DNA of 32,000 nucleotides, from assembly GCA_029864335.1 (NCBI GenBank), contig JAOTTS010000002.1:84671-116670 (forward strand). Reading direction: 5' to 3'. The notes below the pieces were generated by a model. That model was given only the letters and a program-made list of their open reading frames with translations, ran no database searches and was not told where the DNA came from. Source of the DNA: Nitrosopumilus sp. (GTDB lineage: Archaea; Thermoproteota; Nitrososphaeria; Nitrososphaerales; Nitrosopumilaceae). This document shows, piece after piece, positions 2,419 to 19,087 of the stretch. Position 1 is the stretch's first letter; every line of letters begins with the position of its first letter. The translations under genes were made by a program, and so were the position numbers.

Positions 2419-2473
2419 TTTTTATGCTTTGAAAAAATTTAACACTTTTTAGATACAGTGCCTTGCCTTAAGT

Positions 2474-2872
2474 ATGGAAAAATATGAAAAATTACTAAAT
2501 ATGTTAATGGATTTTAATTCTGATATACGATTTGCAGCAGTTTGTGATAAAAATGGAGAAATTCTCTGGAATAGTAAACGTACCAATGTAAGAAATATGG
2601 TACCCTTGAGTGATACAAAAAAGACTCTTCAACGAGCCGTAAGTGCTTGGGAAGAACGCTCAAAAATTGCAGATATAGTTGGAAGAGGGATGTATGTAAT
2701 TGCAGCTTATGAAAAAATAAAGAGGATAACTATTCCGTTAGACAATAAACATATTTTGTTTATCAGCATAGATAATCCCCCATTAAGATCTACAAATAAG
2801 AAGAGTTATGGACATTTAGTTGAAATGGGAAAAATAATGTCTATTGTTGATTTCGTAAATTCTGCAAACTAA
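2474..2872 (+). CDS. small Roadblock/LC7-like protein, paralog 1 of 4 in this window
   Basis: It has an N-terminal helix, then a hairpin IRFAAVCDKNGEILW, then later GMYVIAAYEKIKRITIPLDNKHILFISID. The same architecture is seen at 12225..12662, 22285..22683 and 26492..26893. The fold assignment is inference. Confidence 0.65.
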   Translation: MEKYEKLLNMLMDFNSDIRFAAVCDKNGEILWNSKRTNVRNMVPLSDTKKTLQRAVSAWEERSKIADIVGRGMYVIAAYEKIKRITIPLDNKHILFISIDNPPLRSTNKKSYGHLVEMGKIMSIVDFVNSAN

Positions 2873-2883
2873 ATAACTCTTAA

Positions 2884-3192
2884 TTATTTTTCCATGTATT
2901 TCTTCATAGAATCAAGTTTTTCTTCCATCTTGAGATGTTTGTCTCTTCTTGAATCAATTTTTATTACAACTTCAACTCTAGCAATCCCAAGATTGTGAAC
3001 TACGTTCATCATTGTTTTTGTTGCGCTATTAATTACATCAATATTGTCTGACTCCAAAATTGTCCCCATAGGATTAATTTGATATCTCAAATTATCGACA
3101 TTTTGAATCGATTCTATTGCCTTTGCAATGTAAAAACTGGCACTAGTAGTCTTAGTTGCCATAGGGTATATGGAAATTTCAGCTTGAATCAA
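2884..3192 (-). CDS. MTH1187/YkoF-family (DUF77) thiamine-binding-like protein
   Basis: This 102-aa protein has AEISIYPM...SFYIAKAIE...RYQINPMGTILE...IKIDSRRDK, which is colinear with the MTH1187 family pattern (AELTVIPLG...YEISGMGTLLE...KIDDRRD). Confidence 0.85.
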   Translation of the reverse strand: MIQAEISIYPMATKTTSASFYIAKAIESIQNVDNLRYQINPMGTILESDNIDVINSATKTMMNVVHNLGIARVEVVIKIDSRRDKHLKMEEKLDSMKKYMEK

Positions 3193-3255
3193 GATTGATT
3201 TTATACTCTTATTTTCATAATTATATCTTCTATTTGATTAATAGTGAGAAATTGA

Positions 3256-3366
3256 TTATGGTGTTGGTTTGATAGCTTTAGATTCTCTATCGCGTTTACA
3301 AAAACTACAATACTCCTCTGATGAATTTCTACTAATTGGAGTTAGGCAATCATGACAATACTTCAT
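3256..3366 (-). CDS. Zn-ribbon mini-protein (36 aa)
   Basis: Hand translation gives MKYCHDCLTPISRNSSEEYCSFCKRDRESKAIKPTP, which has two CxxC pairs and an ATG start. Confidence 0.4.
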   Translation of the reverse strand: MKYCHDCLTPISRNSSEEYCSFCKRDRESKAIKPTP

Positions 3367-3464
3367 GCATATTGTAGATTAATCTAGTATATTAGGTAAC
3401 TAATTCTGAATTCTAATGATTTTTTATTAAATTGTTAATACCGATAGATTTCCTCTAAACATTG

Positions 3465-3620
3465 ATGATTCATAAAATTCGTTATTTTGAATCCAAACAG
3501 CTATCTGAAGGAGTTTATCTTCAAGATGTTGTTAATGACTTTCTATCCAAAAAAGGTGATAGTATAATTGCCGTTTTGCCTGTTATGGAGAGTGCCTTGT
3601 TAGTCCACTATATGGAATAA
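3465..3620 (+). CDS. hypothetical small protein (51 aa)
   Basis: Hand translation gives MIHKIRYFESKQLSEGVYLQDVVNDFLSKKGDSIIAVLPVMESALLVHYME. Its composition is protein-like. No motif. Confidence 0.3.
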   Translation: MIHKIRYFESKQLSEGVYLQDVVNDFLSKKGDSIIAVLPVMESALLVHYME

Positions 3621-3765
3621 CCTTCTATTTTTTTATCTAATTTCAAAAACAATTAATCCACTGTTGGTAAAAATTATATGATCTTGGTAAATGATTAGTT
3701 ACTTATAGAACTGCCCTCCTTTAATGAAAAGATGAGAATATCTTACTGGGACTTAGAAACTAAAA

Positions 3766-3879
3766 ATGATTAAAGAAAAATGTGATAGATGCGGTTCACC
3801 CTTAGGAACTGAAAGCAGAAAAACTAAACAAAGATTTTGTGGTAATTGTAAAAAGAAATTTGAATTATATCGAAAATAA
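3766..3879 (+). CDS. Zn-ribbon mini-protein (37 aa)
   Basis: Hand translation gives MIKEKCDRCGSPLGTESRKTKQRFCGNCKKKFELYRK, which has two CxxC pairs and a basic tail. Confidence 0.45.
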   Translation: MIKEKCDRCGSPLGTESRKTKQRFCGNCKKKFELYRK

Positions 3880-3891
3880 TGTTTATTTAGA

Positions 3892-4170
3892 TTATTCGGC
3901 GGGCTTTTTTTCTTTTCTTTTAACACTGTCTTTTTTTCTTCTGGCACCAAAACTAATCAATACCAGCAAAAATCCAATACCAATTAGCATTCCAGCTAAT
4001 GTATTATAGTCTTGATTTTCTTGCTGTGCAATTAGCAGATCCACTATCTCCTCTTCAGTCATTCCTGCCTGACCTGCAGGCATTGTTGCACTGATATTTA
4101 TCACCAATATTGTACCGACAATTATCATTGCAAGACCTCCTGCTAGTATTCTTTTATCAACTAGAACCAT
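3892..4170 (-). CDS. small membrane protein
   Basis: There are two hydrophobic segments (LAGGLAMIIVGTILVINI and LAGMLIGIGFLLVLISFG) and a basic C-terminal tail. The overlapping 3753..3950 ORF looks spurious. Confidence 0.55.
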   Translation of the reverse strand: MVLVDKRILAGGLAMIIVGTILVINISATMPAGQAGMTEEEIVDLLIAQQENQDYNTLAGMLIGIGFLLVLISFGARRKKDSVKRKEKKPAE

Positions 4171-4218
4171 TTGATAACACTAGTTATGGTTTCACCATAT
4201 ATTAGGCATTTTCTTATT

Positions 4219-4509
4219 CTAGAATCCTTCAGGTGGTTTTTGAACAAAAACATTGCAAACAAGTACATCTGTTTTTGAATCTCTGTATTGAACATTACAT
4301 GACACAAACTTCCCTTTCAATGCACGCTCTAGATCTTCTTTTGTAGTTTCTCCATATTGAGGTTGATCAGGATCATCAATTTTTCCAATCATTATTTTTT
4401 CAATCTTGCCATATTCTTCCTGATTATCTTTTCGTGTGTGACTAACAAGTAATTCAAATACGTTGTTTGTTAGGATCCCAATTACGGCTCCACCAATCCC
4501 GTCTCCCAT
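4219..4509 (-). CDS. hypothetical protein
   Basis: A 96-aa ORF with typical composition and an ATG start. No motif recognised. Confidence 0.55.
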   Translation of the reverse strand: MGDGIGGAVIGILTNNVFELLVSHTRKDNQEEYGKIEKIMIGKIDDPDQPQYGETTKEDLERALKGKFVSCNVQYRDSKTDVLVCNVFVQKPPEGF

Positions 4510-4535
4510 GTTTTGAAAATTTTTTTGTTCTATAA

Positions 4536-5363
4536 TTACTTGGTGGCTATACTGAGTTCAAAGTCTGGAACCAATTTTTTCTCTTTAGCCATCTCAAAGA
4601 GTCTCTTGATTGATTCTTCTCCAAGAACTCCCATATTTACTGTTACTTGGTTGACATACATTTTTACAAACTTTTCAATCAAATCACGTGGTTTTCCTCT
4701 GGAATACTGCATTGCATATTCTATAGCATTATCAAAATTCTCTAAACCAAACTCTATTGATGATTGGAGATATTTGTCAAACTTTACAATTGTTTCCATG
4801 CCTAGGTATGTTCTCATAACATTGATTCCAAGTGGAACTGGTAGTCCGTTTGTTGTCTTGTCCCACCATTCACCAACATCCAAAATTTTGACGTTACCTT
4901 CTTGTTCATATGATAATTGAGTTTCATGAATTACCAACCCTGCGTCAACCTTGCCTGAATTTACTGCTTCTGGAATGTCACTAAAATTCATCTCAACATA
5001 ATCAAATTTTCCAATCATTAACTGAAGTAGTAAAAATGCAGATGTCATTTTTCCAGGAATTGCAATTTTACATTTTTTTAATTCATCAATTGATTTTTGC
5101 TCTCTTGCTGTAACAATTGGACCATATCCTATTCCAAAACTTCCACCACTTCTCAATATAGTATATCCTGGAATGTACGCACATGCATGAACTGACACTG
5201 CTGTGACATCAAGTTCTGGATCTGTTGCCTTTCGATTTAATTTCTCAATATCTTCAATAACGTGATTTACTTTAAAGTCTGGAGATGGAACTTTGCCTGT
5301 AAACATTCCATAAAACATGAATGCATCATCAGAGTCAGGAGTGTGACCTACAGAAATTTCCAT
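4536..5363 (-). CDS. MqnA/MqnD-family menaquinone (futalosine pathway) biosynthesis protein
   Basis: It has the N-terminal GHTPDSDDAFMFYGM motif, is 275 aa long, and has the periplasmic-binding-protein-like layout typical of the MqnA/MqnD family. The antisense ORF 4513..4920 is rejected. Confidence 0.8.
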   Translation of the reverse strand: MEISVGHTPDSDDAFMFYGMFTGKVPSPDFKVNHVIEDIEKLNRKATDPELDVTAVSVHACAYIPGYTILRSGGSFGIGYGPIVTAREQKSIDELKKCKIAIPGKMTSAFLLLQLMIGKFDYVEMNFSDIPEAVNSGKVDAGLVIHETQLSYEQEGNVKILDVGEWWDKTTNGLPVPLGINVMRTYLGMETIVKFDKYLQSSIEFGLENFDNAIEYAMQYSRGKPRDLIEKFVKMYVNQVTVNMGVLGEESIKRLFEMAKEKKLVPDFELSIATK

Positions 5364-5447
5364 GTTTATTTCCTAAATTCTCGTAATAAATACCAAAACC
5401 TAACGTTGAATCGTTTTTCTAATATATGTCTGAAATAACTTATCATT

Positions 5448-6353
5448 ATGAATTCAATTGAAGCATATGAAAAAGACATTGAATATCAATTGAATTTCTT
5501 AAAATCTTTTAAAAAACAAAAAACTATTTCTCAAAATCTTCAAAAAAATATTTTGTTTACTGGAAGTGGCGATTCACTTATGTCTTCAATGTTGGCCGAA
5601 TCGTTTTCCGATGGAATTGTAAAAGCAATGGATCCACTAGATTTGTATTCAAATAAGGAACTTGTAAAATCCAAACATGTCTATTTTGTATCAATATCTG
5701 GAAATACTATTACTAACATTAAGGTTGCAAAGATTGCAAAAAATGCAACTGCGATAACATCTAATCCTAACAGTAAATTGGCAAAGGTATCTGATGAAAC
5801 AATTTTGCTTGTCTATCCAAATAGTGGTGTATTCACTGCTGGCAGTATCTCATTTTTAGAAAGTACGCTCACGTGTATTTCTTTGGTCAGAAAGATAGTG
5901 ATTCCAAAAAATGGCAAATTATTCTTTAAAGCAAAATCTGATACAAACAGAGTAAAAATTTCAAAAAGACTGTTTATTTTGGGAAATATGTATACTTACC
6001 CATTAGCAATGTATTGTGCTGCAAAATTTTATGAAATTTTAGGCTATGATGCGCATTATTGTAGAATAGAACAATTCTCTCACATGGAATTGTTTTCTAC
6101 CAAAAAAGGTGACACTGTAATAATTTTTGAGGAGAAAAACTCTCACAATAAACATCTTGTAAAAAACCTCCAAAAAATTGGCATAAATGTAATCCATCCT
6201 GATGTTCCATCTGACAAGATACCTCAAATTATTTACTTCACATTTTTCTCCCAACTTCTTTCTCTAAACGAGGCAAAAAAGAAAAAGAAGAACGATTGCC
6301 ATTTTGTTACTGCAGATAAAATTCGAAATGTTTCAAACCAAATGATCTATTGA
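5448..6353 (+). CDS. SIS-domain protein (phosphosugar isomerase/binding family)
   Basis: It has ILFTGSGDSLMSS (GxGxS-type loop) and VYFVSISGNTITN (SxSGxT), which are characteristic of SIS domains. It is 301 aa long. Confidence 0.7.
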   Translation: MNSIEAYEKDIEYQLNFLKSFKKQKTISQNLQKNILFTGSGDSLMSSMLAESFSDGIVKAMDPLDLYSNKELVKSKHVYFVSISGNTITNIKVAKIAKNATAITSNPNSKLAKVSDETILLVYPNSGVFTAGSISFLESTLTCISLVRKIVIPKNGKLFFKAKSDTNRVKISKRLFILGNMYTYPLAMYCAAKFYEILGYDAHYCRIEQFSHMELFSTKKGDTVIIFEEKNSHNKHLVKNLQKIGINVIHPDVPSDKIPQIIYFTFFSQLLSLNEAKKKKKNDCHFVTADKIRNVSNQMIY

Positions 6354-6401
6354 TCTTTTACAAGGCTAAGGTTTAATACCTGAATCTTAGGGTCTGCGAA
6401 T

Positions 6402-8594
6402 ATGGTGAAATTCAAGTCAACAGGGGAAGTTCTAAAAATTATCAAGAACAAAGACCAAATCCGTAACTTTGGTGTCATTGCTCACGTTGACCATGGAAAG
6501 ACTACAATGAGTGATAGCCTTTTGGCAAACTCTGGAATTATTGCACCATCTGCTGCTGGAAAAGCTTTGGCAATGGACTTTGACAAAGAAGAACAAGCAA
6601 GAGGAATTACAATTTATCAAGCAAACGTTACTTTACACTTTACAAAAAATGATAAAGAATATGTTATAAACATGATTGATACGCCTGGACACGTAGATTT
6701 TAGTGGAAGGGTAATTCGAAGCCTTAGGGCAATTGATGGTGCAGTAGTAGTTTGTGATGCCGTCGAAGGTATTATGACTCAAACAGAAACTGTAACTAGA
6801 ATGGCTCTGGAAGAACGTGTAAAACCAGTTTTGTTTATCAATAAAGTTGATAGACTCATCAAAGAACTAAGATTAACTCCTGAAAAAATGCAGCAACAAT
6901 TAGCAGATGTCGTATCTAACTTTAATCAATTAATTGACACATATGCAGAACCAGAATACAAAGAAAAATGGAAAGTATCAATTCAGGATGCTAGCGTAAC
7001 ATTTGGCTCTGCAAAGGATAGATGGGCAATTAATCTTGATTTGATGAAAGAGCGAGGAATTTCATTTAAAGATGTGATTGATGCATATCAGAATGAAAAA
7101 GTTGATGAACTTGTAGAAAAGGCACCTCTAGCTGATGCAGTACTTGGAATGGTTGTAAAACATCATCCTGCACCACATGAAGCAGTGAAATATAGAATTC
7201 CACAAATTTGGAAAGGTGATTTAGATTCAGATGTTGGAAAAGCATTACTTGCATGTAGTGATGATGGTCCAACAATCATGATGATTGTAAACATGGTATT
7301 AGATCCAGCAGCAGGACCTGTAGCAATTGGTAGACTCTTTTCTGGTAAAATTAAAGACGGACAAACAATTAACATTATTGATTCAAAAAGAGAGGGACGT
7401 GTACAATCTGTCAATTTCTTTATGGGAAACCAAAGAGAACAAGTAGGCGAACTTGGGGCTGGAAATATTCCTGCATTACTTGGATTAACCGAAGCAAGAG
7501 CAGGGAACACATTATCTTCAGTTAAAGGCATTCCAATGTTTGAAGGCGTTCACTATGTTTCAGAACCTGTTGTTCAAATTGCAATAGAACCAAAACATCC
7601 TAAAGACTTACCCAAACTTGTTGAAATTCTCAAACAATTAACCATTGAGGATCCAAACCTTATTGTAAAAATTGATGAGGAAAGTGGCGAAACAATTGTT
7701 GCCGGAATGGGCGTTTTACATCTTGATGTTGCAACTCATAGAATCCAAGATGCAAAATGTGAAATTATAACATCTGAGCCTTTGATTAACTATAGGGAAA
7801 CAGTAAAGGGAGGATGTGAACCAATTATGGCAAAATCTCCAAACAGACACAATAAAATTTTCATGAAAGTAGAACCACTAGAGCCTGAAATCGCTCACAT
7901 GCTAAGAACTGGAGAAATCAGTGATATGAAAGACAAGAAGATTGTTGCAGAACTACTAAAGAAAGCTGGATGGGATACTGATACAATTAAGAGAGTTATG
8001 AAATTTGATTCTCGTGGCAATGTTTTGATTAACGGAACAAAAGGCGTGCAGTTTGTACAAGAATCAACTGATTCTATAAATTCTGGATTTGAAGAAGTCA
8101 TGAAAGAAGGACCTCTATGTAAAGAACAGATGAGGGATTGCAAGTTTATCTTTACTCACTTTGTACCCCATGAAGATACGGCACACAGAGGACTCTCTCA
8201 ACTAGGCCCTGCTTCTAGAAGAGCATGTATGGGTGCTTTGTTAACTGCAGGAACTGCTGTTTTAGAACCAACTTTGGCTATCGAGGTTCGTGTTCCTACT
8301 GATTTGGTTGGAAATGTTGCAACTGTTCTTTCTGGGAAGAGAGGTAAAGTTCTTGACATGTCTCAAAAAGGTGCCTCAAGTATCATTACAGGTGAGATTC
8401 CAGCTTCTGAGACATTCACACTATCTGAAGAGATGAGAGGCCAAACAGCAGGACGCGCAACATGGAATACTTCCTTTAAGGAATGGACCGAAGTTCCAAA
8501 ATCCATGTTAGGGCCAGCAGTAGCTGAGATTAGAAAGAGAAAAGGATTGGCACCAGACCCACCAGGTATTAACGAGTTTATCGACAAAGAGTAA
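6402..8594 (+). CDS. fusA: translation elongation factor aEF-2
   Basis: It has G1 AHVDHGKTT, G3 DTPGHVDF, G4 NKVDR and the domain IV loop HEDTAHRG (diphthamide His context). It is 730 aa long. Confidence 0.97.
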   Translation: MVKFKSTGEVLKIIKNKDQIRNFGVIAHVDHGKTTMSDSLLANSGIIAPSAAGKALAMDFDKEEQARGITIYQANVTLHFTKNDKEYVINMIDTPGHVDFSGRVIRSLRAIDGAVVVCDAVEGIMTQTETVTRMALEERVKPVLFINKVDRLIKELRLTPEKMQQQLADVVSNFNQLIDTYAEPEYKEKWKVSIQDASVTFGSAKDRWAINLDLMKERGISFKDVIDAYQNEKVDELVEKAPLADAVLGMVVKHHPAPHEAVKYRIPQIWKGDLDSDVGKALLACSDDGPTIMMIVNMVLDPAAGPVAIGRLFSGKIKDGQTINIIDSKREGRVQSVNFFMGNQREQVGELGAGNIPALLGLTEARAGNTLSSVKGIPMFEGVHYVSEPVVQIAIEPKHPKDLPKLVEILKQLTIEDPNLIVKIDEESGETIVAGMGVLHLDVATHRIQDAKCEIITSEPLINYRETVKGGCEPIMAKSPNRHNKIFMKVEPLEPEIAHMLRTGEISDMKDKKIVAELLKKAGWDTDTIKRVMKFDSRGNVLINGTKGVQFVQESTDSINSGFEEVMKEGPLCKEQMRDCKFIFTHFVPHEDTAHRGLSQLGPASRRACMGALLTAGTAVLEPTLAIEVRVPTDLVGNVATVLSGKRGKVLDMSQKGASSIITGEIPASETFTLSEEMRGQTAGRATWNTSFKEWTEVPKSMLGPAVAEIRKRKGLAPDPPGINEFIDKE

Positions 8595-8676
8595 AAAGGG
8601 AGAGCCCCCCTCGCAGGCGTAAATTTGTGTCGCTTTTAGAATGGACTAGGTAAGTACGTAGGTTATGATTTGTTAG
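8565..8676 (+). repeat. aEF-2 3'-end/downstream repeat, copy 1 (native copy)
   Basis: tttatcgacaaagagtaaaaag (8577-8598) and the following ~77 nt recur at 22065-22162 (-), 24729-~24800 (+) and 25872-25931 (-). Confidence 0.9.
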
Positions 8677-9409
8677 AGAATAAATTAGAATATGTTTTAA
8701 TAAAATTCAATCCAATAATTCTTTTCTTTTGAAATGAATCAGATTTTATTTCGTTTGAAATATCATCCTTTTCCTTTGAGAATTCATCACGGAGTTTTTT
8801 TACATCTGGACTCTCCTTTCCTTGATTAATTTGAAATTGATAATAAGTATGAAGAAATCCATAAAAAATACTTGTTGTAGTAATTCTTTCTAAATATGCT
8901 AAAGCCTTTGTTTGTTTTGTGTTTGGAGTAACGTACAGCGTAGGATTGTGATATCGCATATGAAAGGAATCTTTTTTAATTTCATTAAGAAATTGGAAGT
9001 TTTTTAAAATACTAGAGTTTTTCATTTTAGCAGAGTCATAATCTTTTGTAAATGGTTTGTAACCCAATTTAGCCATATTATTCTTAGTAAAATTATAGAA
9101 TTCAGGACCTATCTTAGACATTCTTTCTGTTGAATCTATGTATGGCCCTTGTAATTTTCTTGTATGTGTTTTGGATTTTGAAAGTTTGTTCCATTCTTTT
9201 TTAGTTAAAATTTCATTGTTGATTATTTTTTCTAAAACTAATTTCATTTTAGATAATTCTTCATGTGCTAAAACACTTAACGATAATGCAATTGGATATT
9301 TATTATTATTATAAAGAATTTCACTTGCTTCTAATAAGGATTGAATGTGTTCTTTACAAACTTTAAGATCATTATGAAGATTTCTAGGATTATCTTTTTG
9401 ATTATTCAA
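8663..9409 (-). CDS. hypothetical protein, AbiV/HEPN-like helical N-terminus (tentative)
   Basis: This 248-aa ORF has LLEASEILYNNNKYPIALSLSVLAHEELSKMKLV followed by KTHTRKL. That resembles the AbiV-family pattern (A..L..g.y..A..La.lA.EE.gK ... H..K). It starts 9 nt downstream of the PolB remnant on the same strand. Confidence 0.4.
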   Translation of the reverse strand: MNNQKDNPRNLHNDLKVCKEHIQSLLEASEILYNNNKYPIALSLSVLAHEELSKMKLVLEKIINNEILTKKEWNKLSKSKTHTRKLQGPYIDSTERMSKIGPEFYNFTKNNMAKLGYKPFTKDYDSAKMKNSSILKNFQFLNEIKKDSFHMRYHNPTLYVTPNTKQTKALAYLERITTTSIFYGFLHTYYQFQINQGKESPDVKKLRDEFSKEKDDISNEIKSDSFQKKRIIGLNFIKTYSNLFSNKS

Positions 9410-9418
9410 TTTTTTAAA

Positions 9419-10237
9419 TTAAATTGATGCTTTATTAAAATGATTTAAAGACAAAGGCAACGATTCATTCATAATTTTATCCTCAATAGATTTGATTTTA
9501 CCCATCCACAACCGCTTTCTATCTCCATTCAAATTAACTTCCTTGGTTTTTGGTTTTATTATGCCAACATCTGAAATTTTATTCTGAATAATTGCTTGTA
9601 TTAGTGACTGACTCTTTTTTTCAATGAATTTTATGAATAATCTCCCTCTTCGCTCTACTGTATCTAGATGCTCGATATCTTTTTTCTTTAATTTGCCTAG
9701 ACCGCGTTGCTTCCATGAACCATTAAATCTGTAAAATCCATTTTGGAGATAATACACATCATCTGCACTTTTCTCAAATGAAAACTCGCCTAGAGTGGTA
9801 GAATTTACGCCTAAATACTTAGTAGTGCACACAGAATCTGTAGCAAAGGCCACCACATCTTTTTCAATATCATGTTTACGCACAAAATTATACAGTTGAG
9901 CACGACAAAAGCCAGTGATAAAGGCAAAAATCACAGGATTAAACAAATTTCCAATTTCATGATTCACACTTTGTCCTGTCTTACCATATATGGAATTCAG
10001 AATTATCTTAATTGGTAACTGTAAAGGATCTTTTCGTTCCTTTAGTTCCATTCTTTTCTGATATAGATTCTGAATAAATTCACGGTATGGATAAATATCA
10101 GAATTTGTAATGAACTGGTATCCTTCAAGAATCCTGTAGAAGGTTGTTCTTTCGCAGGCTTGAAGTTCTTGCAATATGACGTATGTTTCAAATTCTTCTG
10201 ATGAATTCGGAGACCAAGTGTAACAATGTGAATACAT
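9419..10237 (-). pseudogene. 5'-truncated protein-primed family-B DNA polymerase (palm/thumb part only)
   Basis: KIILNSIYGKTGQ is motif B (KxxxNSxYG). VVAFATDSV is motif C (DTDS with the first Asp replaced by Ala). LGEFSFEKSADDVYYLQNGFY resembles the phi29-type KxY region. The ORF begins around where motif A should be, with stops immediately upstream. The exonuclease domain and motif A are absent. Confidence 0.8.
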
Positions 10238-10278
10238 AACTAATAAAGCCTAATTTTATTTATGGATGATTGTAAAAA

Positions 10279-10818
10279 TTGCATGGACCAGAATTTCTTT
10301 CAAATCCAACGATACCAATTATTTTAATTCTTGGAGCAGGAATTTTTCTCTATCTCAGTGTTAAAAATGGCAATACAGTACGAAGTGTCAGAAAAATTAA
10401 TGGTGCGGAGATATTAGATACAAGCTATGAATGGATCTATTTTACTGGGTTTATAGGACTCATAGCAATCGGGATTCATCTACTTGCAGAATATAATTTG
10501 CATTGGTACGATGTAACTCCAATAGATCGTTTCACTCATGCAATTTCAGGTATGGCAATAACTGCAATTGTTTTGAATTTTAATTTAACAAGTCAGAGAA
10601 AATTCTATTATACTATTGCAATTGCAGCTTCATGGATAGCATTCATAGGGTGGGAACTCTTTGAATCAGTTTTTGTTTATTTGAACCCAGATGGATTTAT
10701 AGAAATTAGCAATTGGGATACTGCAGTAGATCTATGGATTGATTTTCTTGGAGGATTATCAATTTGCTTTTTATGTGATGAACTAACGGAATGGCCTGAA
10801 GAAACTAGACAGAAGTAA
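10279..10818 (+). CDS. polytopic membrane protein, unknown function
   Basis: There are four to five hydrophobic helices (IPIILILGAGIFLYL, IYFTGFIGLIAIGIHLL, AISGMAITAIVLNF, YYTIAIAASWIAFIGW, LWIDFLGGLSICFL). The start is TTG in the track. Confidence 0.6.
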   Translation: MHGPEFLSNPTIPIILILGAGIFLYLSVKNGNTVRSVRKINGAEILDTSYEWIYFTGFIGLIAIGIHLLAEYNLHWYDVTPIDRFTHAISGMAITAIVLNFNLTSQRKFYYTIAIAASWIAFIGWELFESVFVYLNPDGFIEISNWDTAVDLWIDFLGGLSICFLCDELTEWPEETRQK

Positions 10819-11088
10819 AAATACTATGGTTCCTCCTTTTTGGAGAAAAATTTTGGTTTTATTTAGCACAATAAAGATCAAATACCATATTCACGCATTA
10901 AATTACATGAGAAGATTCTGGATTGTTATTCCATGATTTTACATTAACTTTTGATATCAATTATTTTTTAATATTTTAGAAAAATAAAATAGGATTATGG
11001 ATTCATCTGTATTTTTAATAACACAATACATAACTTGATATCATGAGCTAACAAGCTACAAGAAATAAGACCATGGGTCATAATAACT

Positions 11089-11352
11089 GTGTTTAAAGAA
11101 AACACAAATCCAAATGATCTGCAAAGAATATCTCCACAGATTCAAAATTTAGTAGATGAGTGGCAAACTCAAGGAAAGATGATTTGGTCTGGTGTATTCA
11201 GTGATAATGCCACAAGCATGACAGTCTTTGAGGGAACAGAACAAGAAGCAAATGAATTTTACAACAAATACGACAGAATCTGCTCTGGAATATTGCAATA
11301 TTCAATGTATCAATGGGATGCAATGCCAATCCTCTCAGTCTTATCTAAGTAA
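11089..11352 (+). CDS. hypothetical protein (87 aa)
   Basis: The ORF has a GTG start and protein-like composition. It is the first gene of a same-strand string of mini-ORFs. Confidence 0.5.
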   Translation: MFKENTNPNDLQRISPQIQNLVDEWQTQGKMIWSGVFSDNATSMTVFEGTEQEANEFYNKYDRICSGILQYSMYQWDAMPILSVLSK

Positions 11353-11378
11353 TCTGTAGGAGTTTTCTTTTTTTGAAT

Positions 11379-11501
11379 ATGCTAAAAAACGAATTGTGTA
11401 GAATTTGTGGTTGTGAAATACGTGAATACAAAAAATGCTCAGAATACCATCTGATTATCTCTACCGTATGCAAGTGCTGTGAGAACATACAAGAAATTTA
11501 A
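11379..11501 (+). CDS. Cys-rich Zn-ribbon mini-protein (40 aa)
   Basis: Hand translation gives MLKNELCRICGCEIREYKKCSEYHLIISTVCKCCENIQEI. Confidence 0.4.
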   Translation: MLKNELCRICGCEIREYKKCSEYHLIISTVCKCCENIQEI

Positions 11502-11610
11502 ATACATCACTATGAAGTAAAATGAATAATTTCCAAACATAAAACAAGATGTTAGATTAGTAACATGAAATTATGACGCTGTTTTAATTTCTGTATGGTT
11601 AAAACAAATC

Positions 11611-11736
11611 ATGCCTCTTGGAGTATCTGTCAGATATTGTAGTGATTGTGGCAAAGTCTTTTCTTATTATGTTATAAAAAATTCAAAATTGTGCTCAAAT
11701 TGTAGAAATCTGCCTGTATCACGCCATACAAAATGA
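11611..11736 (+). CDS. Zn-ribbon mini-protein (41 aa)
   Basis: Hand translation gives MPLGVSVRYCSDCGKVFSYYVIKNSKLCSNCRNLPVSRHTK. Its stop overlaps the next ATG (ATGA). Confidence 0.45.
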   Translation: MPLGVSVRYCSDCGKVFSYYVIKNSKLCSNCRNLPVSRHTK

Positions 11737-11905
11737 CTTGCCGAGGAATTTGTGAACGGTACAGGTCAGAGAAGAACGGGTATTCGGATAATGCTAAAAG
11801 ATGTACCTCTTGTAACGTATACCTGTTGTATGGAGGGATAAATGTTCATGCTGTAACTCTCATCTAAGATTCAAACGTAAAGCCAAGTTTCACAATTCAA
11901 ACTAG
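11733..11905 (+). pseudogene. four-Cys Zn-ribbon gene split by a frameshift
   Basis: Frame 0 reads MTCRGICERYRSEKNGYSDNAKRCTSCNVYLLYGGINVHAVTLI*. The second knuckle, KCSCCNSHLRFKRKAKFHNSN*, continues in another frame from about nt 11839, and that frame has no start codon of its own. Confidence 0.5.
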
Positions 11906-12084
11906 ATGGTAAAAATTGCTAGTGGTTTTTTCCAGTTTGGCTTCAGAATAGGCTTGAACTTGTACCAGAACGCATCCAAGATAAATGTAAGAGATCGTTT
12001 CTTGCAAAATCTGCCAAAAAATCTTCAAGAATTATTAACTATGATCAAATCTTCCATCTGCATCAAAATTGCATGGATTCCATC

Positions 12085-12225
12085 TTAAAAGCAATTGAAA
12101 TGAAATCGTTCAATTGGTTTGTAGTAACATTTAGAACAAATGTTCTGAACTGTATCTTTACATTGTGCACAAATAGTATATTCTGTAAGCATGTTACCAC
12201 ATTTTCTGCAGCTCTCATCAGGCAT
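12085..12225 (-). CDS. Zn-ribbon mini-protein (46 aa), translationally coupled to the upstream Roadblock-like gene
   Basis: Hand translation gives MPDESCRKCGNMLTEYTICAQCKDTVQNICSKCYYKPIERFHFNCF. Its ATG overlaps the stop of 12225..12662 (TAATG). Confidence 0.5.
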   Translation of the reverse strand: MPDESCRKCGNMLTEYTICAQCKDTVQNICSKCYYKPIERFHFNCF

Positions 12226-12662
12226 TATATCACCTTTGTACTAACATAACTCAAACAAAAACTTGAAATCAAAGAAAATAATTTATCCGATACTTGTTTA
12301 ATATCTATATCTGCTTTTGATATAACCAACAATATTTCATCATCTAAGGGATAGACAAATTCTACAAGTGATTTTCTCAGCGTTACTGTATTTCTAAAGA
12401 AACTTAATTTGTTATCAAATTCCTTTATCATTGTTGTTTGCAATGTACGTTGCATCGATATCATTTCTAATTCCTGAACAGAAATATGATTCAAATTTTC
12501 ATTGTTGTTAAATTTACTATCTATAATTCTACCATTTTTATTTACTATTGCTACCAGATTGATATCCTTATTTATCAAACAAATAATCTTGCATAATTCT
12601 GATCTTTCTGATGCCCGTTTAAGAGAATTGGTTATCATATTTATATCTCCATATTGAAGCAT
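12225..12662 (-). CDS. small Roadblock/LC7-like protein, paralog 2
   Basis: It has INLVAIVNKNGRIIDS and later FRNTVTLRKSLVEFVYPLDDEILLVISKAD, the same layout as the other three paralogs. Confidence 0.65.
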   Translation of the reverse strand: MLQYGDINMITNSLKRASERSELCKIICLINKDINLVAIVNKNGRIIDSKFNNNENLNHISVQELEMISMQRTLQTTMIKEFDNKLSFFRNTVTLRKSLVEFVYPLDDEILLVISKADIDIKQVSDKLFSLISSFCLSYVSTKVI

Positions 12663-12838
12663 TTATGTATCCTGTTAACATTATTAACAAAGTTAACTCT
12701 TGATATTTCACCACATCAAACAATATTCATTGGACCTCATTATGATTACAAACATTTCTTGAGGAATTGGCTCGTTGTGATTGTACAATGCGACTCATCA
12801 TCCAATAGTATCCAATCGCCATGTCTTGAGAAAGGAAA

Positions 12839-13018
12839 TTAATCCTCATGGATTAATACCTCGTCATCTGAGAATATCCAGGATAGACCTCTTATATCTT
12901 CCCAAGAAAATTTGGAAGATTCTGCTTGCATAGAAGATTTCGTCGTTTCTTCTACAGGATTGCTTTCAATCTGAGTTTTCAAGTATGGATGTTCACTCTC
13001 AATAATATTTTGATTCAT
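12839..13018 (-). CDS. acidic hypothetical mini-protein (59 aa)
   Basis: Hand translation gives MNQNIIESEHPYLKTQIESNPVEETTKSSMQAESSKFSWEDIRGLSWIFSDDEVLIHED. It is one codon below the track threshold. Confidence 0.3.
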   Translation of the reverse strand: MNQNIIESEHPYLKTQIESNPVEETTKSSMQAESSKFSWEDIRGLSWIFSDDEVLIHED

Positions 13019-13805
13019 GCTTCTGATTAGGCATGTTTTTTATATCAACACATCATTCCTATTGCGGCATGCCTGATTTTTCATTTATTATATATAGAGG
13101 GATTATCATGTACGCTGATTTGTTAACACAAAAAAATTCTAATATGTAGAATAGTATTGTTTGAAATAGATTTTTAATTATTATTCTTTTTCTAAAAACT
13201 TTTAATTTTACACCTTGAACCTTAAGGCCAAAAACGGCAGTACTTTGGCGACAGATTCAACACTTACCAGTCTTACAAAATAGTATTTACATGACACTGA
13301 TGATTGATTCGTGATAGTTTTAAATAAATTTTGTAAAACAAAACAATGAATGGTTCTAACTTTGAGCACTCACATTTCTCGACGTTAAAGTGTGGTTGTA
13401 CAATTAATACAATTTCAGGAGAATTATTTCAAGAATGTATCCCTCACCAACAAGCAAATTTTACAAAGTAGCGATTTAATTTTAACTGTAATTCTTCTTT
13501 TTGTTTTTTCCATACATTTTCATTTTAAAACTAAAATTCTGCAAAATTATATTGCTATTTGCACTGATTGGTTTAGTTAATCATTTCACCATGTCTAAAA
13601 TTTCACAAAGGATTGAGTTTGTCTATCGGACATACCGTGATCATCTTATGAAACCATACATACATAAGAACCCCTGGATGATGCCCTAGAAGTATATATC
13701 TGCCTCTAACTCACTTTCAACCTTCTGTGAATTTATACACAGAATCATGTCATGAACTTAGATGTTAAATATAATTGAACTTTTTCTGTACTCTACTTTT
13801 TCATA

Positions 13806-15062
13806 TCATAAACAGATTTTTCTTATACCATAAATTACAACAGATGGTGCAACAAAGTACATCCCAATATTCAATATAATCACACCAATTCCATATCCTA
13901 AGACCTCTTCATCAGAGTCCATATCAACATAATTTAGAACAGATAGGGAAGTGATCAATGGAGTCAATATTATTTTGACAGTTTCCTTGAAAATTGGATT
14001 TTCACGCTCATAGTCTGCTATAACTGGGCTAAATAAGTAGTAAAAACTATTGAATGATTGCATAAATGCGGATCCTGGTTCTGTTTTCAACAAGTGTTCA
14101 TCTCTTAGCTCCCTAAGTTGTTGTACTTGGGGAGCAAGCTCAGAGGCAAATGTTGCAGTGGCAATAAGGCAACCACCTCCCTCTGACGAATCTTGAATTG
14201 GTTCTTTTTGTTCCTCGTCTATTTTAATTTCCTCTTGAATTGGTTCTTTTTGTTCCTCGTCTATTTTAATTTCCTCTTGAATTGGTTCTTTTTGTTGTGT
14301 AGATTCAGACGCCTTTATCTGATGTTCAAGTTTTCCAATTAATCCCTTTACTTGACGAATTTTTTCAGAATCATACCCTAAACTCAGTAGTCTTTCTTCA
14401 AACTCATCTTCTGAAATTATTCCTTCCTTAAACTGGTTAATAATAATATCATCAGGATCTTGGAGTTTTTGTTCTTGGAAATATGTTTCCTCATGTACTG
14501 TAAAAATCAAGGTTTTTTTTATATCGTAAACTTTTGAGTGCTGTATGCCCCACCCGAATTTTATTTTATATTCACCAGGGGGTTGGTTTTTATCAATGCA
14601 TACGTTGCCATATCTTTGAATTGTTTTTTCATTAATTTTAAGATCACAAACAGACTCCATCCCGCCATCAATTACGATTGGTTTGGGATTTGTTTTTCCA
14701 AATAATGTAAAAGTTATTGTCTTAGATTCAAGCTTGTCTCCATTTACTTCCTCAAATGAATATAATACAACACAGTTTTCACCTGCACAGTTATGTGGCA
14801 CATTACTTCCAAATGCAGACAAAAATGGTAAATAAACAAAAAATTCTATTCTTGGATCAATATTTTTTGGTACAGATGGTATGTCTGTAACCTCAATTTC
14901 AATATGGGTTCCAGGCTGACCGGATGTAGGACTTATTGTTATTGTAGGCATGCCAAGTCCTATTGCAGTCGAATCAAAATCTGATTGACCATAGGTATCT
15001 GAAAAGTTTGAAAACGAAGATAAAAAAACCAATAAAAAGATAATAAAGAAATTTTTTAACAA
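13806..15062 (-). CDS. secreted protein with a C-terminal GGGCLIATATF...APQVQQLR membrane-anchored domain (CFI-box-like)
   Basis: There is an N-terminal signal peptide (FFIIFLLVFLSSFSNFS), an ectodomain of about 250 aa and an acidic repeat linker. The conserved C-terminal domain GGGCLIATATFASELAPQVQQLRELRDEHLL...FYYLFSPVIADYERENP carries two hydrophobic helices. Confidence 0.8.
   Translation of the reverse strand: MLKNFFIIFLLVFLSSFSNFSDTYGQSDFDSTAIGLGMPTITISPTSGQPGTHIEIEVTDIPSVPKNIDPRIEFFVYLPFLSAFGSNVPHNCAGENCVVLYSFEEVNGDKLESKTITFTLFGKTNPKPIVIDGGMESVCDLKINEKTIQRYGNVCIDKNQPPGEYKIKFGWGIQHSKVYDIKKTLIFTVHEETYFQEQKLQDPDDIIINQFKEGIISEDEFEERLLSLGYDSEKIRQVKGLIGKLEHQIKASESTQQKEPIQEEIKIDEEQKEPIQEEIKIDEEQKEPIQDSSEGGGCLIATATFASELAPQVQQLRELRDEHLLKTEPGSAFMQSFNSFYYLFSPVIADYERENPIFKETVKIILTPLITSLSVLNYVDMDSDEEVLGYGIGVIILNIGMYFVAPSVVIYGIRKICL
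14191..14296. repeat. perfect 42-bp in-frame tandem repeat, 2.5 copies
   Basis: The unit tcttgaattggttctttttgttcctcgtctattttaatttcc occurs at 14191-14232 and 14233-14274, with a 22-nt partial third copy. It encodes (EPIQEEIKIDEEQK)n in the 418-aa protein. Confidence 0.9.
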
Positions 15063-15288
15063 GTTATTGACTTCTTGAGTTTTGTTTATATTTAACTCTC
15101 ATTAAAGTTTTCGTTTCCTACAGCACAAATCGTAGCACACCGTTCTGAAGTAAAAATATTTTTGAATTTTATTTATTGCTGGATATATAAGAGAACATGA
15201 TAGAAATACTCTGGACAAAAATCTTATGTCCGTAATGAATAGTCATAATCATAATTTTAAAATAAAAAAATTGAGGGTTTTTATTTTA

Positions 15289-15579
15289 TTAATATTTCAA
15301 TTTCAAACTTTTCATCAAATTTTGAAATCTCTCAAGTTCTTCAAAAAATGATCTGCCCTTTTCTGTCAAAATAAAAAGTCTATTTTTTTCATCTGTAGTC
15401 TTTTTCATTAATTCTGCCTCGATTAATTTGTTACATTTATCTACAGCAGCATAATGTGACAGATTGGCCTTCCGCGATATCGCGGATATAATTATACCAT
15501 TTTGTCCCTCCTCACGTGTGACGGTGAGAATATCACTTAAGATGCCCATTTCAGACCTATATGTGCACTTTAAACTCAT
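15289..15579 (-). CDS. winged-helix DNA-binding protein (putative transcription regulator)
   Basis: This 96-aa ORF has ILSDILTVT...IIISAISRKANLSHYAAVDKCNKLIEAELM...RLFILTEKG, a typical wHTH layout. It is divergent from the histidine kinase gene. Confidence 0.65.
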   Translation of the reverse strand: MSLKCTYRSEMGILSDILTVTREEGQNGIIISAISRKANLSHYAAVDKCNKLIEAELMKKTTDEKNRLFILTEKGRSFFEELERFQNLMKSLKLKY

Positions 15580-15671
15580 TATGATTGATTTTCATCTTTT
15601 GTTATAATACAATTCTTTTAACTTTGCGGGGTGCTTTTCACTTAAATTATGACTTTATTTCAAACTAATAG

Positions 15672-17549
15672 TTGAGATTTAGACTTGTTCATATCTTAAT
15701 TATTGGAATGCTTATCATATCCATTACTTATGCTGTTCAAAGTTTTATTACATTTCAGGCAAATACTGAACAACTCACAGAATCTGTTGCACTAAAAAAT
15801 GAATCAATTGCCACAAACATCATACAGGTTTTTAATTTTAATTTAGATGAAAGAATTAGTGATTTTAAATCATTAGAAAAAAATAACGATATTAGACAAA
15901 TTCTAAAATTCTCAAATGAGGAATTTTCAATGATTCCTAACATTGATAAATTTATGGAAGAAAAAGCATTTTCGAATGAAAATTTTAATCGTCATCTTCC
16001 ATTTCTTACTCAAGTAGTAGAAAAAAAATACCAAAATGATCTAATTGACATCATTAACCGTTACGAACAAAGTTATGAATTTAATTCTCTTGATGAATTT
16101 TTAGTAACTAATGCATATGGCGCAAACATAGTAACCATTTCAGGAAAAGTGGGCTATATCCAACTAGATCAAGAGTGGTGGCAAATAACCAAATCTAAGG
16201 GACTTTATGTCGGCGATATAGAATATTTTGAAAAGTATTCAGACTACTTTATACCAATTGGAATTAGAATTTCTGATGAGAATCAAAAGTTTATTGGAGC
16301 GGTGCATGTTTTAATTAAATTAAAGGATTTGATATCAGAATTTGCAAATACCTCCGACATACTTAAAGAACAAAATAAGGAAATATCTTTACTTGATAAA
16401 AATGGTAGAATCATCTATTCAGATGGATTTGTATTTGATCAGGATCTTAAAATTTCCTATCTTAAAGAATTGAATCAACTGTCAGGCAATTTAGTTGGAT
16501 TAGACAATTATGAAAATTCTGTAATTGCTTTTGCAAAATCGGAAAATTTGGATACTAGTGGATTAAATTGGATAGCTATAATTGAACAAAACAAATCCGA
16601 TATTATTGCTGACATTAGTGATTCTAGAAACTCTATAATATTTCCATCTATAATTGGAATCTCAATAACGATAATAATTGGAATCATCATCACCCTCTTT
16701 GTTTCAAGTCCTCTCGGAAAATTAGCTCATCTTTCTTCAGAAATAGCAAGAGGTAATTTCGATGTCCGTGCAGAAAATACTCAAATTCATGAAATTGGCT
16801 CCATATCAGATTCATTTAACGATATGGTACAATCACTAAAGAAACTAATCCAAACAGAAAAAGAACTTGTCGAAGTTAAGATTAAGATGCGAAACGAACG
16901 TCTTACTGCACTAGGTGAATTTTCCGCAAGTATGGCACACGATATGAGAAATCCTCTTGCAATTATCAAAACTTCTCTTGATGCTCTGAAAATAAAATTC
17001 AAGGGACAGGATGAAAAGATTGACAGATTACTTTCTAACATGGATATAGGCATATCTAGAATGTCTCATCAGATAAAAGATGTATTGGATTATGTGAGAA
17101 TAACTCCAGTAAACATTACTGATGTTAATCTAAATAAAATCATCAAATATGCCATAGAATCACTCGAGATTCCAAAAAATATATCTATAAAATTACCCGA
17201 TAATGACATTATTATAAAATGCGATGTAAAAAAAATGGAAATTGTTTTGATTAATTTAATTCTTAATGCCATTCAGGCAATTGGAAAAAATGTAGGAAAT
17301 ATTACAGTTAATTCCAAAGAGATGTACAATCATTATGAGATTGAAATTCAAAATACGGGAGAGTCAATATCTGATTCTCTTTTAGAGAAAATTTTCGAGC
17401 CTTTACTTACAACCAAATACCAAGGAACTGGGTTGGGTTTGTCTACATGCAAAAACATAATTGAACAACATGGAGGGAAAATTTCAGCCAGGAACAACCC
17501 AACAACATTTAGAATAATATTTCCTAAGGAAGTTAAAAGAGACTTTTAG
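15672..17549 (+). CDS. sensor histidine kinase (TM, ~300-aa extracytoplasmic sensor, TM, HAMP-like, HisKA, HATPase_c)
   Basis: It has the H-box SASMAHDMRNPL, the N-box LINLILNAIQA and the G-boxes IQNTGESI and GTGLGLS. The two TM segments are ILIIGMLIISITYAV and FPSIIGISITIIIGIIITLFV. The start is TTG. Confidence 0.9.
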   Translation: MRFRLVHILIIGMLIISITYAVQSFITFQANTEQLTESVALKNESIATNIIQVFNFNLDERISDFKSLEKNNDIRQILKFSNEEFSMIPNIDKFMEEKAFSNENFNRHLPFLTQVVEKKYQNDLIDIINRYEQSYEFNSLDEFLVTNAYGANIVTISGKVGYIQLDQEWWQITKSKGLYVGDIEYFEKYSDYFIPIGIRISDENQKFIGAVHVLIKLKDLISEFANTSDILKEQNKEISLLDKNGRIIYSDGFVFDQDLKISYLKELNQLSGNLVGLDNYENSVIAFAKSENLDTSGLNWIAIIEQNKSDIIADISDSRNSIIFPSIIGISITIIIGIIITLFVSSPLGKLAHLSSEIARGNFDVRAENTQIHEIGSISDSFNDMVQSLKKLIQTEKELVEVKIKMRNERLTALGEFSASMAHDMRNPLAIIKTSLDALKIKFKGQDEKIDRLLSNMDIGISRMSHQIKDVLDYVRITPVNITDVNLNKIIKYAIESLEIPKNISIKLPDNDIIIKCDVKKMEIVLINLILNAIQAIGKNVGNITVNSKEMYNHYEIEIQNTGESISDSLLEKIFEPLLTTKYQGTGLGLSTCKNIIEQHGGKISARNNPTTFRIIFPKEVKRDF

Positions 17550-17592
17550 AAGATCCAATAAATACATAAACCTCTTAATATATTAAGAAAAC

Positions 17593-17964
17593 TTGCCTTC
17601 TACTGGACTAATTCTAATTGTTGATGATGATTTACCTTTACTGGAAAATACTGCCTACATGATTGAAACATTAGGATATGAAGTGATAACTGCAAAGGAT
17701 GGGATTGAAGCCGTTGAAGTATACAAAGCTGCACATCCAGCCCTTACACTAATGGACATAAAGATGCCTAAACTAGATGGCTATGGTGCATTTTTCAAAA
17801 TCAAAGAATTTGATTCTAATGCAAAAATTGTTTTAATTACTGCATATACATTAGATGAGAAAAAACATCTAAAGGCACAAAGCATGTCGCTTTTAGACAC
17901 TATTGAAAAACCATACGACATAGAGCGTCTTGAGAAAATTATATGTAAATTTGTGGATTTATAA
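17593..17964 (+). CDS. single-domain response regulator (CheY-like receiver)
   Basis: It has LIVDDD, the phospho-acceptor context LTLMDIKMPKLDG, and VLITAY. There is no output domain. Confidence 0.85.
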   Translation: MPSTGLILIVDDDLPLLENTAYMIETLGYEVITAKDGIEAVEVYKAAHPALTLMDIKMPKLDGYGAFFKIKEFDSNAKIVLITAYTLDEKKHLKAQSMSLLDTIEKPYDIERLEKIICKFVDL

Positions 17965-19041: not shown

Positions 19042-19087
19042 CTCTGAAAAAATATAACCAAGTTCAATTGATTTTGCACAAGAGAAG

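Follow-up and report, generated by a model that had tools for sequence, protein, structure and literature searches.

A 32,000-nucleotide (nt) stretch of a Nitrosopumilus sp. genome (contig JAOTTS010000002.1, positions 84,671 to 116,670; here called the window) carries, directly behind the aEF-2 gene, a 272-codon open reading frame (ORF) related to family-B DNA polymerases (PolB). We conclude, with a probability of roughly 0.85, that this ORF is a non-functional PolB pseudogene, the stub of a family-1 casposon at the canonical aEF-2 target, and a mosaic formed by cassette exchange. The element is of a known kind, and the locus is an ordinary relic, one more instance of it. An earlier reading of the same DNA (the original prediction) had described the ORF as a 5'-truncated, protein-primed PolB left by a casposon-type element; the observation itself was confirmed, and the interpretation overall was partly supported. 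The coordinates of the features are collected in Table 1.

A truncated casposon polymerase behind aEF-2

The Pfam profile DNA_pol_B_2 ('organellar and viral', the protein-primed type) matched residues 34-92 of the ORF to profile positions 334-391 of 468, with E = 3.1e-7 and 30.1 bits (gathering cut-off 25.8); full-length relatives matched the same profile at E of about 1e-28. When aligned with full-length relatives of 591-605 residues, the ORF covered only residues ~338-594 of ~594, the C-terminal 43% of the protein. Motif B (KIILNSIYGKTGQ) and motif C (FATDS) are retained, and the 'LQNGFY' region is conserved too. Missing from the alignment are ExoI (AIDTET), ExoII (FFYNLSYDAE), ExoIII (YCIxDC) and motif A (YDINSAYP). 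The 'ATDS' that replaces 'DTDS' in motif C was seen in every family member, intact ones included, and is therefore not a sign of decay. Because the exonuclease domain and the motif A aspartate are missing, the stub is predicted to be unable to polymerise DNA. The original prediction had anticipated the 5' truncation, motif B and the motif C variant, the loss of the exonuclease half and of one catalytic Asp motif, and a stop upstream of the ORF (an in-frame TAG lies five codons 5' of it); all of these were borne out, and the profile check that it proposed placed the ORF as it expected. Its position for the breakpoint has to be revised. Homology begins at ORF residue 13 (window ~10201). In the full-length protein of 594 residues this is residue ~338, about 45-50 residues past motif A and not near it; the 12 codons before it are junction sequence, and the breakpoint therefore falls at ~10201-10204 rather than at 10238-10278. 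A tblastn search with the full-length relatives found no N-terminal half of PolB in the 32 kb.

Among 5.8 billion proteins searched, 245 relatives of the ORF came to light, none more than 78% identical to it and nearly all from Nitrosopumilus or other Thaumarchaeota. In species-representative genomes we found 23 PolB loci, in seven of which the match spans most or all of the 460-residue query. Five of the seven have an open frame of 593-628 codons (L007, L008, L009, L011 and L012), and two (L010 and L017) are broken by a stop or a frameshift; the full-length protein begins with MAES.PVTD. Relative to this family the stub deviates at 4 of 77 conserved columns against a median of 2%, a mild excess. 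Neither phmmer with the fragment nor hmmsearch with a profile of the PolB family gave anything usable against PDB sequences. An AlphaFold2 model of the fragment, built with 20 homologues, was of low confidence (pLDDT 59, pTM 0.41), and a Foldseek search of the PDB with this model returned noise only (best E = 0.37).

Nitrosopumilus family-1 casposons have a protein-primed PolB and are inserted in the 3'-distal part of aEF-2, the gene being left unaltered (PMC4046053). The ef-2 gene is the commonest family-1 target, tandem insertions are known, and one family-1 casposon has a HEPN nuclease (PMC6563490). The PolB family of loci L008 and L009 is 57-69% identical to the stub and lies beside Cas1, terminal inverted repeats (TIRs) with ~20 nt of perfect match, direct target repeats and aEF-2, which bears out the assignment to a casposon. 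The order in L009, whose PolB is 57% identical to the stub over the shared part, is aEF-2, target sequence, TIR, a 426-residue cargo gene, PolB, small genes, Cas1, TIR and target sequence. At its two ends this casposon has AGAATCCCCCCATTTCGTGCG and the inverted counterpart, and both adjoin a copy of TTTATCGACAGAGAGTAAAAA(T/G), the two copies being direct repeats. Cas1 is the gene closest to aEF-2 in L008, where a casposon of the opposite orientation is followed by a second, inverted one. The Cas1 genes of the relatives matched Pfam Cas_Cas1 (E = 1.6e-42 in L009, and 1.2e-44) and TIGR00287 (E = 4e-41).

The window aEF-2 gene is 89-94% identical to those that flank the intact casposons of L008 and L009, and Pfam GTP_EFTU/EFG families are recorded for an identical gene in contig L030. 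At its stop codon lies target copy A (att A), which consists of a 3-nt leader, a 13-bp duplicated core (8580-8592) and AAAAAG. Its sequence is that of the direct repeats flanking the intact L008 and L009 casposons, and it matches the 22-bp repeat of the N. koreensis element, of which 13 bp (ATTGATAAAGAGT) are the true duplication (PMC8464041). In that element the TTT leader is required and the 3' end of the TIR is TTCTA, and target positions A1 and T13 are essential in vitro (PMC8464041). The TIR that follows att A in the window aligns with the intact casposon TIRs and with a TIR consensus of ~70-80 nt from 105 metagenome sites; its tip is mutated, with GGGAGAG in place of TAGAAT, and it is 89% complementary to 22062-22140. 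The original prediction had noted the position behind aEF-2 and had missed its significance, namely that this is the documented family-1 target (PMC4046053, PMC6563490) and that a target and a TIR lie at the stop codon.

Two features of family-1 casposons are thus present in the window: the TIRs, and the insertion at the 3' end of an aEF-2 gene that is left whole. The 32 kb hold no intact Cas1 ORF, only two fragments, and no complete PolB gene; of the three or four small genes upstream of PolB, a promoter and five codons are left. The 22-mer target occurs four times, in alternating orientations, and no remnant is now bounded by a direct pair. Since it is without a casposase, a complete PolB and direct flanking repeats, the locus would not by definition count as a casposon. 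We propose that a family-1 casposon integrated, via a Cas1-type casposase, at the last codons of aEF-2, and that later deletion would have removed the N-terminal 57% of PolB, the terminal-protein and small genes and the casposase. The surviving remnant would comprise the target and TIR at 8577-8677, an AbiV cargo gene and the PolB tail, and would reach to at least 10921.

Archaeal viruses have protein-primed PolBs as well, and the fragment could have come from another element of this type (a spindle-shaped thaumarchaeal virus, a provirus or a pipolin, for instance) and lie beside aEF-2 by chance. The nearest phage and virus records (His1, His2 and the Acidianus bottle-shaped viruses) are 23-36% identical to the stub, whereas its relatives at 57-74% identity are linked to Cas1 or lie at casposon target sites. 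Moreover, a casposon target sequence and TIR bound the stub, the ORFs scanned included no capsid or integrase genes, and a 27-nt probe with the exact sequence of the final aEF-2 codons and the target had no match in viral contigs. An origin of this kind therefore seems very unlikely. A tyrosine-integrase attachment site, considered as a model for the repeated aEF-2 tail, was also rejected: the intact L008 and L009 casposons have true TIRs with direct repeats, and the model predicts that aEF-2 ends with non-TIR DNA behind them should be equally numerous, which is not so in the metagenome sample. Because the window has no tRNA genes and no Rfam families, tRNA-type attachment sites and known RNAs were excluded. 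The G+C content is uniform, with no compositional signal of an island.

Cassette exchange within the population

Between the stub and the aEF-2-proximal TIR lies a gene for an AbiV-type HEPN protein, which starts 9 nt after the stub and runs in the same direction; its role as cargo had been overlooked in the original prediction. Lactococcal AbiV is an abortive-infection protein. The window gene matched Pfam HEPN_AbiV (E = 7e-17, 62.4 bits against a cut-off of 27.1), NCBIfam AbiV_defense TIGR04498 (E = 1.7e-13, 51.1 bits against 27) and PADLOC AbiV (E = 7.5e-8). It is full-length with respect to a family of ~240-260 residues, and six invariant residues (E50, E51, K54, W73, H82 and K145) are kept. 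In an exhaustive search of 1.84 billion cluster representatives, no other protein was more than 32% identical, and a word-indexed protein search returned only the gene itself. The cargo gene is probably functional, and it and the still-intact target site are likely what remains active at this locus.

In relatives, other cargo stands between the 3' end of PolB and the TIR: a HEPN protein in L007 (9429-10301, minus strand) and the 426-residue protein in L009. In the second casposon of L008, a TIR-domain protein (12561-13598, minus strand) lies just past the gene following PolB and matches TIR_2, the CAP12/Pycsar-effector TIR and, weakly, the Thoeris ThsB-like TIR; this domain is of the Toll/interleukin-1-receptor type and is unrelated to the casposon terminal repeats. 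The intact casposons of the relatives L008 and L007 both have defence-type cargo near the PolB 3' end.

Comparison of the window with metagenome contigs (L030-L041) revealed that the region around the stub is polymorphic. Over 1-8629 the window and L030, a contig of a conspecific strain, are 99.9% identical, but they differ from the first TIR base onward: L030 has a different TIR, an unrelated 168-residue gene on the other strand occupies the place of AbiV, and the PolB tail is only ~77% identical. From 10083 to the end of the contig at 10209, L030 is again 100% identical. Two other contigs, L033 and L034, carry the L030-type allele and run on through the identical truncation junction and the DUF2238 gene to 20861; they are 97-98% identical to the window overall over 9431-20861 and identical from 10083 through the junction. 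L030, L033 and L034 match the window at 99.9% up to 8598; between 8599 and 10082 they are either unrelated to it or ~77% identical. The contigs L035 and L036 begin exactly at 10083, and L037-L041 cover 11440-31935 at 99.8-100%, the inverted target copies included. Thus, within the population, 8599-10082 has been replaced as a cassette, with its left edge at the casposase integration point and its right edge inside PolB. The 3' part of the ORF (9419-10082) belongs to the exchangeable cassette, and the 5' part (10083-10204) is an older stub found in all strains.

Both alleles have a 272-codon PolB ORF. Over codons 1-52 they differ by one synonymous change and by no amino acid, and over codons 53-272 the synonymous divergence (dS) is ~1.7, with a ratio of non-synonymous to synonymous divergence (dN/dS) of 0.12. 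The alleles thus unite one old stub with two different polymerase genes, whose divergence took place under purifying selection. A third haplotype, L031, has the TIR, AbiV and PolB tail of the window to ~9870 and a different sequence beyond; since it switches at ~9871, crossovers must have occurred at more than one point. The original prediction had proposed a deletion or rearrangement breakpoint. The truncation junction is indeed real, being common to at least four independent assemblies, but the ORF is a population-level mosaic and not a simple deletion product.

The stub is a mosaic pseudogene that served as a homology arm for cargo exchange. In the simplest reading, a new casposon would have integrated at the intact target beside the old stub and in the same orientation, and recombination of the new PolB with the stub would then have deleted the new 5' PolB, small genes and Cas1 along with the old TIR and the old cargo. 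The same pattern would result if the whole allele had passed from one strain to another by crossing over in aEF-2 and in the stub. The open frame of the stub would be explained by the recent copying of most of the ORF from a working gene; by either route, therefore, it needs no selection on the stub. A polymerase stub may in this way have acted as a recombination arm for the exchange of cargo between otherwise 99.9% identical ammonia-oxidising archaea. As the cargo exchanged here is a candidate abortive-infection gene, casposons would thereby be linked to the dynamics of defence islands.

It is also conceivable that the PolB fragment was domesticated, either as a palm/thumb piece that partners AbiV in a defence module or as a supplier of promoter or translation signals for AbiV. 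The ORF is open and co-directional with AbiV across a 9-nt gap, its ATG is preceded, at a distance of about 20 nt, by an A/T-rich, TATA-like stretch, the conserved columns are little changed, and many PolB tails of 180-290 residues occur on long contigs. However, DNA of 32% G+C is rich in such TATA-like strings, the open frame is accounted for by recent copying from intact genes, and the partner varies, conspecific strains pairing the stub with the unrelated 168-residue gene on the other strand. Furthermore, other genomes have PolB truncated at scattered points (P0018, residues 168-350), the stub has lost the motif A aspartate and every Exo motif, and PADLOC gave no match for it. We consider domestication improbable, if somewhat less so than a viral origin.

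The junctions themselves might be suspected of being assembly artefacts, chimeric joins made at repeated casposon sequences in a metagenome-assembled contig. Casposon regions do break assemblies (PMC4779613), and L030, L035 and L036 end or begin within the stub. These breaks fall, however, at the boundary of the polymorphic cassette, as strain variation predicts, and both the PolB/DUF2238 junction and the whole 10083-31935 layout recur at 98-100% in L033, L034 and L037-L041, which come from several samples and assemblers. The chance that the junctions are artefactual is accordingly very small.

Rearranged casposon debris in the window

Across the breakpoint, the stub is followed by a DUF2238 membrane-protein gene. 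Possibly this is a casposon-borne variable gene, because it lies between two casposon-derived pieces; no homologue was found in the other casposon loci. The second of these pieces, the start of a casposon small gene, is 84-90% identical to L008 7155-7205, L010 8837-8885 and L006 4317-4369, which adjoin Cas1, and the homology ends after codon 5. Its order and orientation are as expected for a casposon with a minus-strand PolB, and for this reason we extend the remnant to at least 10921. About 1.9 kb, comprising the PolB N-terminal half and the terminal-protein and small genes, is gone between the stub and this piece, and Cas1, expected past 10921, is also missing there. The 11 kb between 10.9 and 22 kb carry genes for a histidine kinase, two response regulators and an FMN reductase.

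Table 1. Features of the locus (window positions; att, copy of the 22-bp target)
Feature	Position	Strand	Remarks
aEF-2, target gene of family-1 casposons	6402-8594	plus	730-residue ORF
att A, 22-bp target	8577-8598	plus	TTT-ATCGACAAAGAGT-AAAAAG; overlaps aEF-2 stop codon
Casposon TIR, aEF-2-proximal, ~79 nt	8599-8677	plus	C-run, inner TTTGTT motif
AbiV-type HEPN gene, casposon cargo	8663-9409	minus	248 residues, looks intact
Truncated protein-primed PolB ORF	9419-10237	minus	272 residues; homology at 9422-10201
DUF2238 membrane-protein gene	10279-10818	plus	Abuts truncation point; Pfam DUF2238 recorded for identical protein
Promoter region and first five codons of casposon small gene	10870-10921	plus	Codons encode ATGAGAAGATTCTGG
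Inverted junction of two former tandem casposons	22062-22200	minus	TIR, att B, second TIR tip
att B	22141-22162	minus	1 mismatch; TIR 22062-22140 on one side
Cas1 C-terminal fragment	24590-24730	minus	~42-47 residues, cut off exactly at att C
att C and 17 nt of TIR	24729-24767	plus	att C = 24729-24750, 3 mismatches
att D	25910-25931	minus	Exact 22-mer; degenerate TIR on spacer side (feature 25860-25931)
Cas1 N-terminal stub	26387-26473	plus	29 residues; leader side of att D
Second PolB tail stub	26994-27092	plus	Last ~33 codons; adjoins DUF6659 gene 26492-26893

Further casposon pieces were found at 22-27 kb. The four copies of the 22-mer target, against none expected, lie in the order plus, minus, plus, minus; the original prediction had missed the three copies beyond att A, two of them inverted, as well as the second PolB stub. 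On the other side of att B from its 79-nt TIR lies a second TIR tip (22163-~22200, C-run 22172-22176). This layout matches the tandem junctions at L008 11034-11055 and L009 3921-3942 but is reversed relative to aEF-2. Together, att B and the inner TIR (22062-22162) form a 101-nt, 89% inverted repeat with 8577-8677; the TIRs at 8599-8677 and 22062-22140 may, but need not, have bounded one element. Copy C is altered at both end positions, A1 and T13, which are intact in copies A and D. Two fragments of Cas1 were detected by tblastn, one at 24730-24605 on the minus strand with 71% identity to residues 289-330 of L009 Cas1 (E = 3e-15), the other at 26387-26473 on the plus strand with 72% identity to residues 5-33 (E = 5e-8) and with corresponding blastn matches to L007, L008 and L009. 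The statement in the original prediction that no Cas1-like ORF is recognisable was thus wrong, and of the two sequences that a tBLASTn check was meant to trace, the casposase was found within the 32 kb, as fragments, and the N-terminal half of PolB was not.

The 22-27 kb interval contains what is left of further casposons, two or three at the least, that integrated at the same target, and the region as a whole is a rearranged graveyard of several casposons. In the related genome L025, a block of PolB tail and DUF6659 gene lies directly behind aEF-2; since this block has the opposite orientation to that in the window, the window lineage inverted a large segment. The alternating orientation of the target copies calls for casposon pairs to have been inverted at least twice; recombination between outer TIRs could have done this, as could a composite of two casposons that inserted again. 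We rejected a single inversion across the 101-nt repeats (8577-8677 and 22062-22162), as it cannot itself give inverted target copies. We infer a history of at least two inversions plus deletions.

Several points weigh against the reading of the ORF and its surroundings as casposon relics. The order of the inversions and deletions is not uniquely reconstructable, and the target copy expected to the right of the second PolB stub is a degenerate trace at best (C-run 27515-27519). The segment from 10.9 to 22 kb may be either casposon cargo or trapped host DNA, and an intact casposon bearing this AbiV cargo, the presumptive donor, was not found. Finally, the frame of the stub is open with only 4 of the 77 conserved columns changed, and sequence alone leaves room for expression or a residual role of the stub.

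Other observations concern neighbouring genes. Three paralogues of the DUF6659 type, all on the minus strand, occur in the window (12225-12662, 22285-22683 and 26492-26893), two of them directly beside TIR or PolB debris. Homologues lie beside PolB stubs or target units at L025 9477-9881, L001 1330-1698, L019 2712-3095 and L093 474-872, and the family may represent recurrent casposon cargo or site-associated genes. Just past the small-gene stub, at 11373-12225, is a cluster of ORFs of 41-46 residues that are rich in CxxC pairs (zinc-ribbon-like) and gave weak Pfam hints only. The ORF at 13806-15062 (minus strand) encodes a secreted-looking protein of 418 residues and contains, at 14191-14296, perfect 42-nt tandem repeats encoding EEQKEPIQEEIKID units (~2.5 copies: two complete units, then 22 nt from the start of a third). 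The C-terminal ~120 residues of this protein (GGCLIATA...) are duplicated in a 141-residue ORF within the debris (23535-23960, minus strand) and in L010. Upstream of the FMN-reductase gene, at 18946-19041, is an intergenic hairpin whose 41-nt arms are 78% complementary and enclose a loop of 14 nt; it has no Rfam match. A second rearranged casposon graveyard, away from aEF-2, was found in a Nitrosopumilus chromosome (OZ252092; L006/L018), where three PolB fragments in mixed orientations lie within 5 kb (6016-6276, 7548-7919 and 10001-10639) beside phage-tail-tube-like genes; one segment is 86% identical to window 25926-26459.

Target units elsewhere and known systems

The 27-nt probe found at least 120 sites in metagenomes (L042-L161). 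A C-run TIR directly follows the target in 105 of the 120 sites that have 30 nt or more of sequence behind it. All six PolB matches beside these sites are C-terminal pieces on the convergent strand, and 11 of 12 Cas1 matches are inward-pointing N-terminal pieces, several of them short stubs on contigs that run kilobases further. Since the PolB matches are C-terminal and the Cas1 matches N-terminal, it is the gene end beside the TIR that is found at the target in either insertion orientation, and the stub in the window fits this pattern. Two called proteins, P0112 and P0119, have a PolB tail fused to another part and are probably junction ORFs at other truncation points; the N terminus of P0112 is tyrosine-recombinase-like, and P0119 has a PF01902 (diphthamide-synthase-like ATP-binding) domain.

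Only 8 of the 113 sites with at least 90 nt of upstream sequence are true aEF-2 ends, the other 105 having unrelated DNA upstream. These 105 sites adjoin housekeeping genes (for example a cobalamin operon, methylmalonyl-CoA mutase, ribE, transketolase and LeuRS). The dispersed unit is ~100-107 nt long and sharply bounded, conservation extending from ~7 nt before AACGAG through the whole TIR. It is usually without a second target copy or a casposon gene, and several contigs hold two copies of it; examples of sites are L116 ~11589, L118 ~9904 and L093 ~307, and also L003-L005/L014 11166-11187, L013, L016, L021 and L022. The unit, in which a 13-nt leader travels with the TIR, may be a portable casposon target.

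A broader reading, which we put forward tentatively and regard as rather doubtful, is that dead stubs behind aEF-2 act as a permanent landing pad that keeps TIR-proximal cargo, and that the dispersed ~100-nt unit is a portable target. The landing pad would be flanked by an intact target and, at its far side, by a PolB or Cas1 stub serving as homology arm; it would retain the TIR-proximal cargo of an incoming casposon and discard the rest, and defence genes such as AbiV could then be swapped between strains without a resident casposase. The unit would consist of the last 13+3 nt of aEF-2, the 13-bp core and the whole TIR, and would have spread to many non-aEF-2 sites in Nitrosopumilaceae, so that casposons or casposon ends would carry a portable copy of their own target.

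As a relic, the locus offers a clean, well-bounded example of the fate of a self-synthesising transposon: the site stays usable, relics accumulate and invert, and the gene ends on the TIR side survive. ORFs of this kind should be annotated as casposon PolB pseudogenes and not as 'DNA polymerase'. Only the exchange of cargo through the stub and the dispersed target and TIR units go beyond the casposon literature cited here.

The window shares with the family-1 casposons NitAR1-C1, NitSJ-C1, NitAR2-C1 and NitNF5-C1/C2 the same PolB family and the position at the 3' end of an unaltered aEF-2 gene (PMC4046053, PMC6563490). The 22-bp repeat with its 13-bp core, the TIRs, the re-use of the site and the nuclease or HEPN cargo are likewise those of Nitrosopumilus family-1 casposons. 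Unlike them, the window is without an intact casposase, terminal-protein gene or small conserved genes and has 43% of PolB; its TIR tip, normally TAGAA, is mutated, and its target copies alternate in orientation instead of forming direct repeats. The AbiV cargo, a candidate abortive-infection protein, resembles other AbiV proteins (Pfam PF18728, TIGR04498) in its whole-length family match and its invariant residues, and differs from them in being at most 32% identical, archaeal and casposon-borne. Relics at a re-used specific site have also been described for the inactivated tandem casposons and solo-TIRs of Methanosarcina (PMC4779613) and for the decaying second casposon of M. psychrophilus (PMC4046053). 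There too the remnants are TIRs only or gene fragments, and inversion by TIR recombination is discussed; those elements, however, belong to families 2 and 4, with an RNA-primed PolB and tRNA or intergenic sites, and neither paper describes cassette exchange through a gene stub. A further parallel is provided by the Tn7 islands at attTn7 downstream of glmS (PMC4046053, PMC4779613). Although Tn7 has an unrelated transposition machinery and no self-encoded polymerase, it too lands site-specifically behind an essential conserved gene, and tandem copies, dead ones among them, make up a variable island there.

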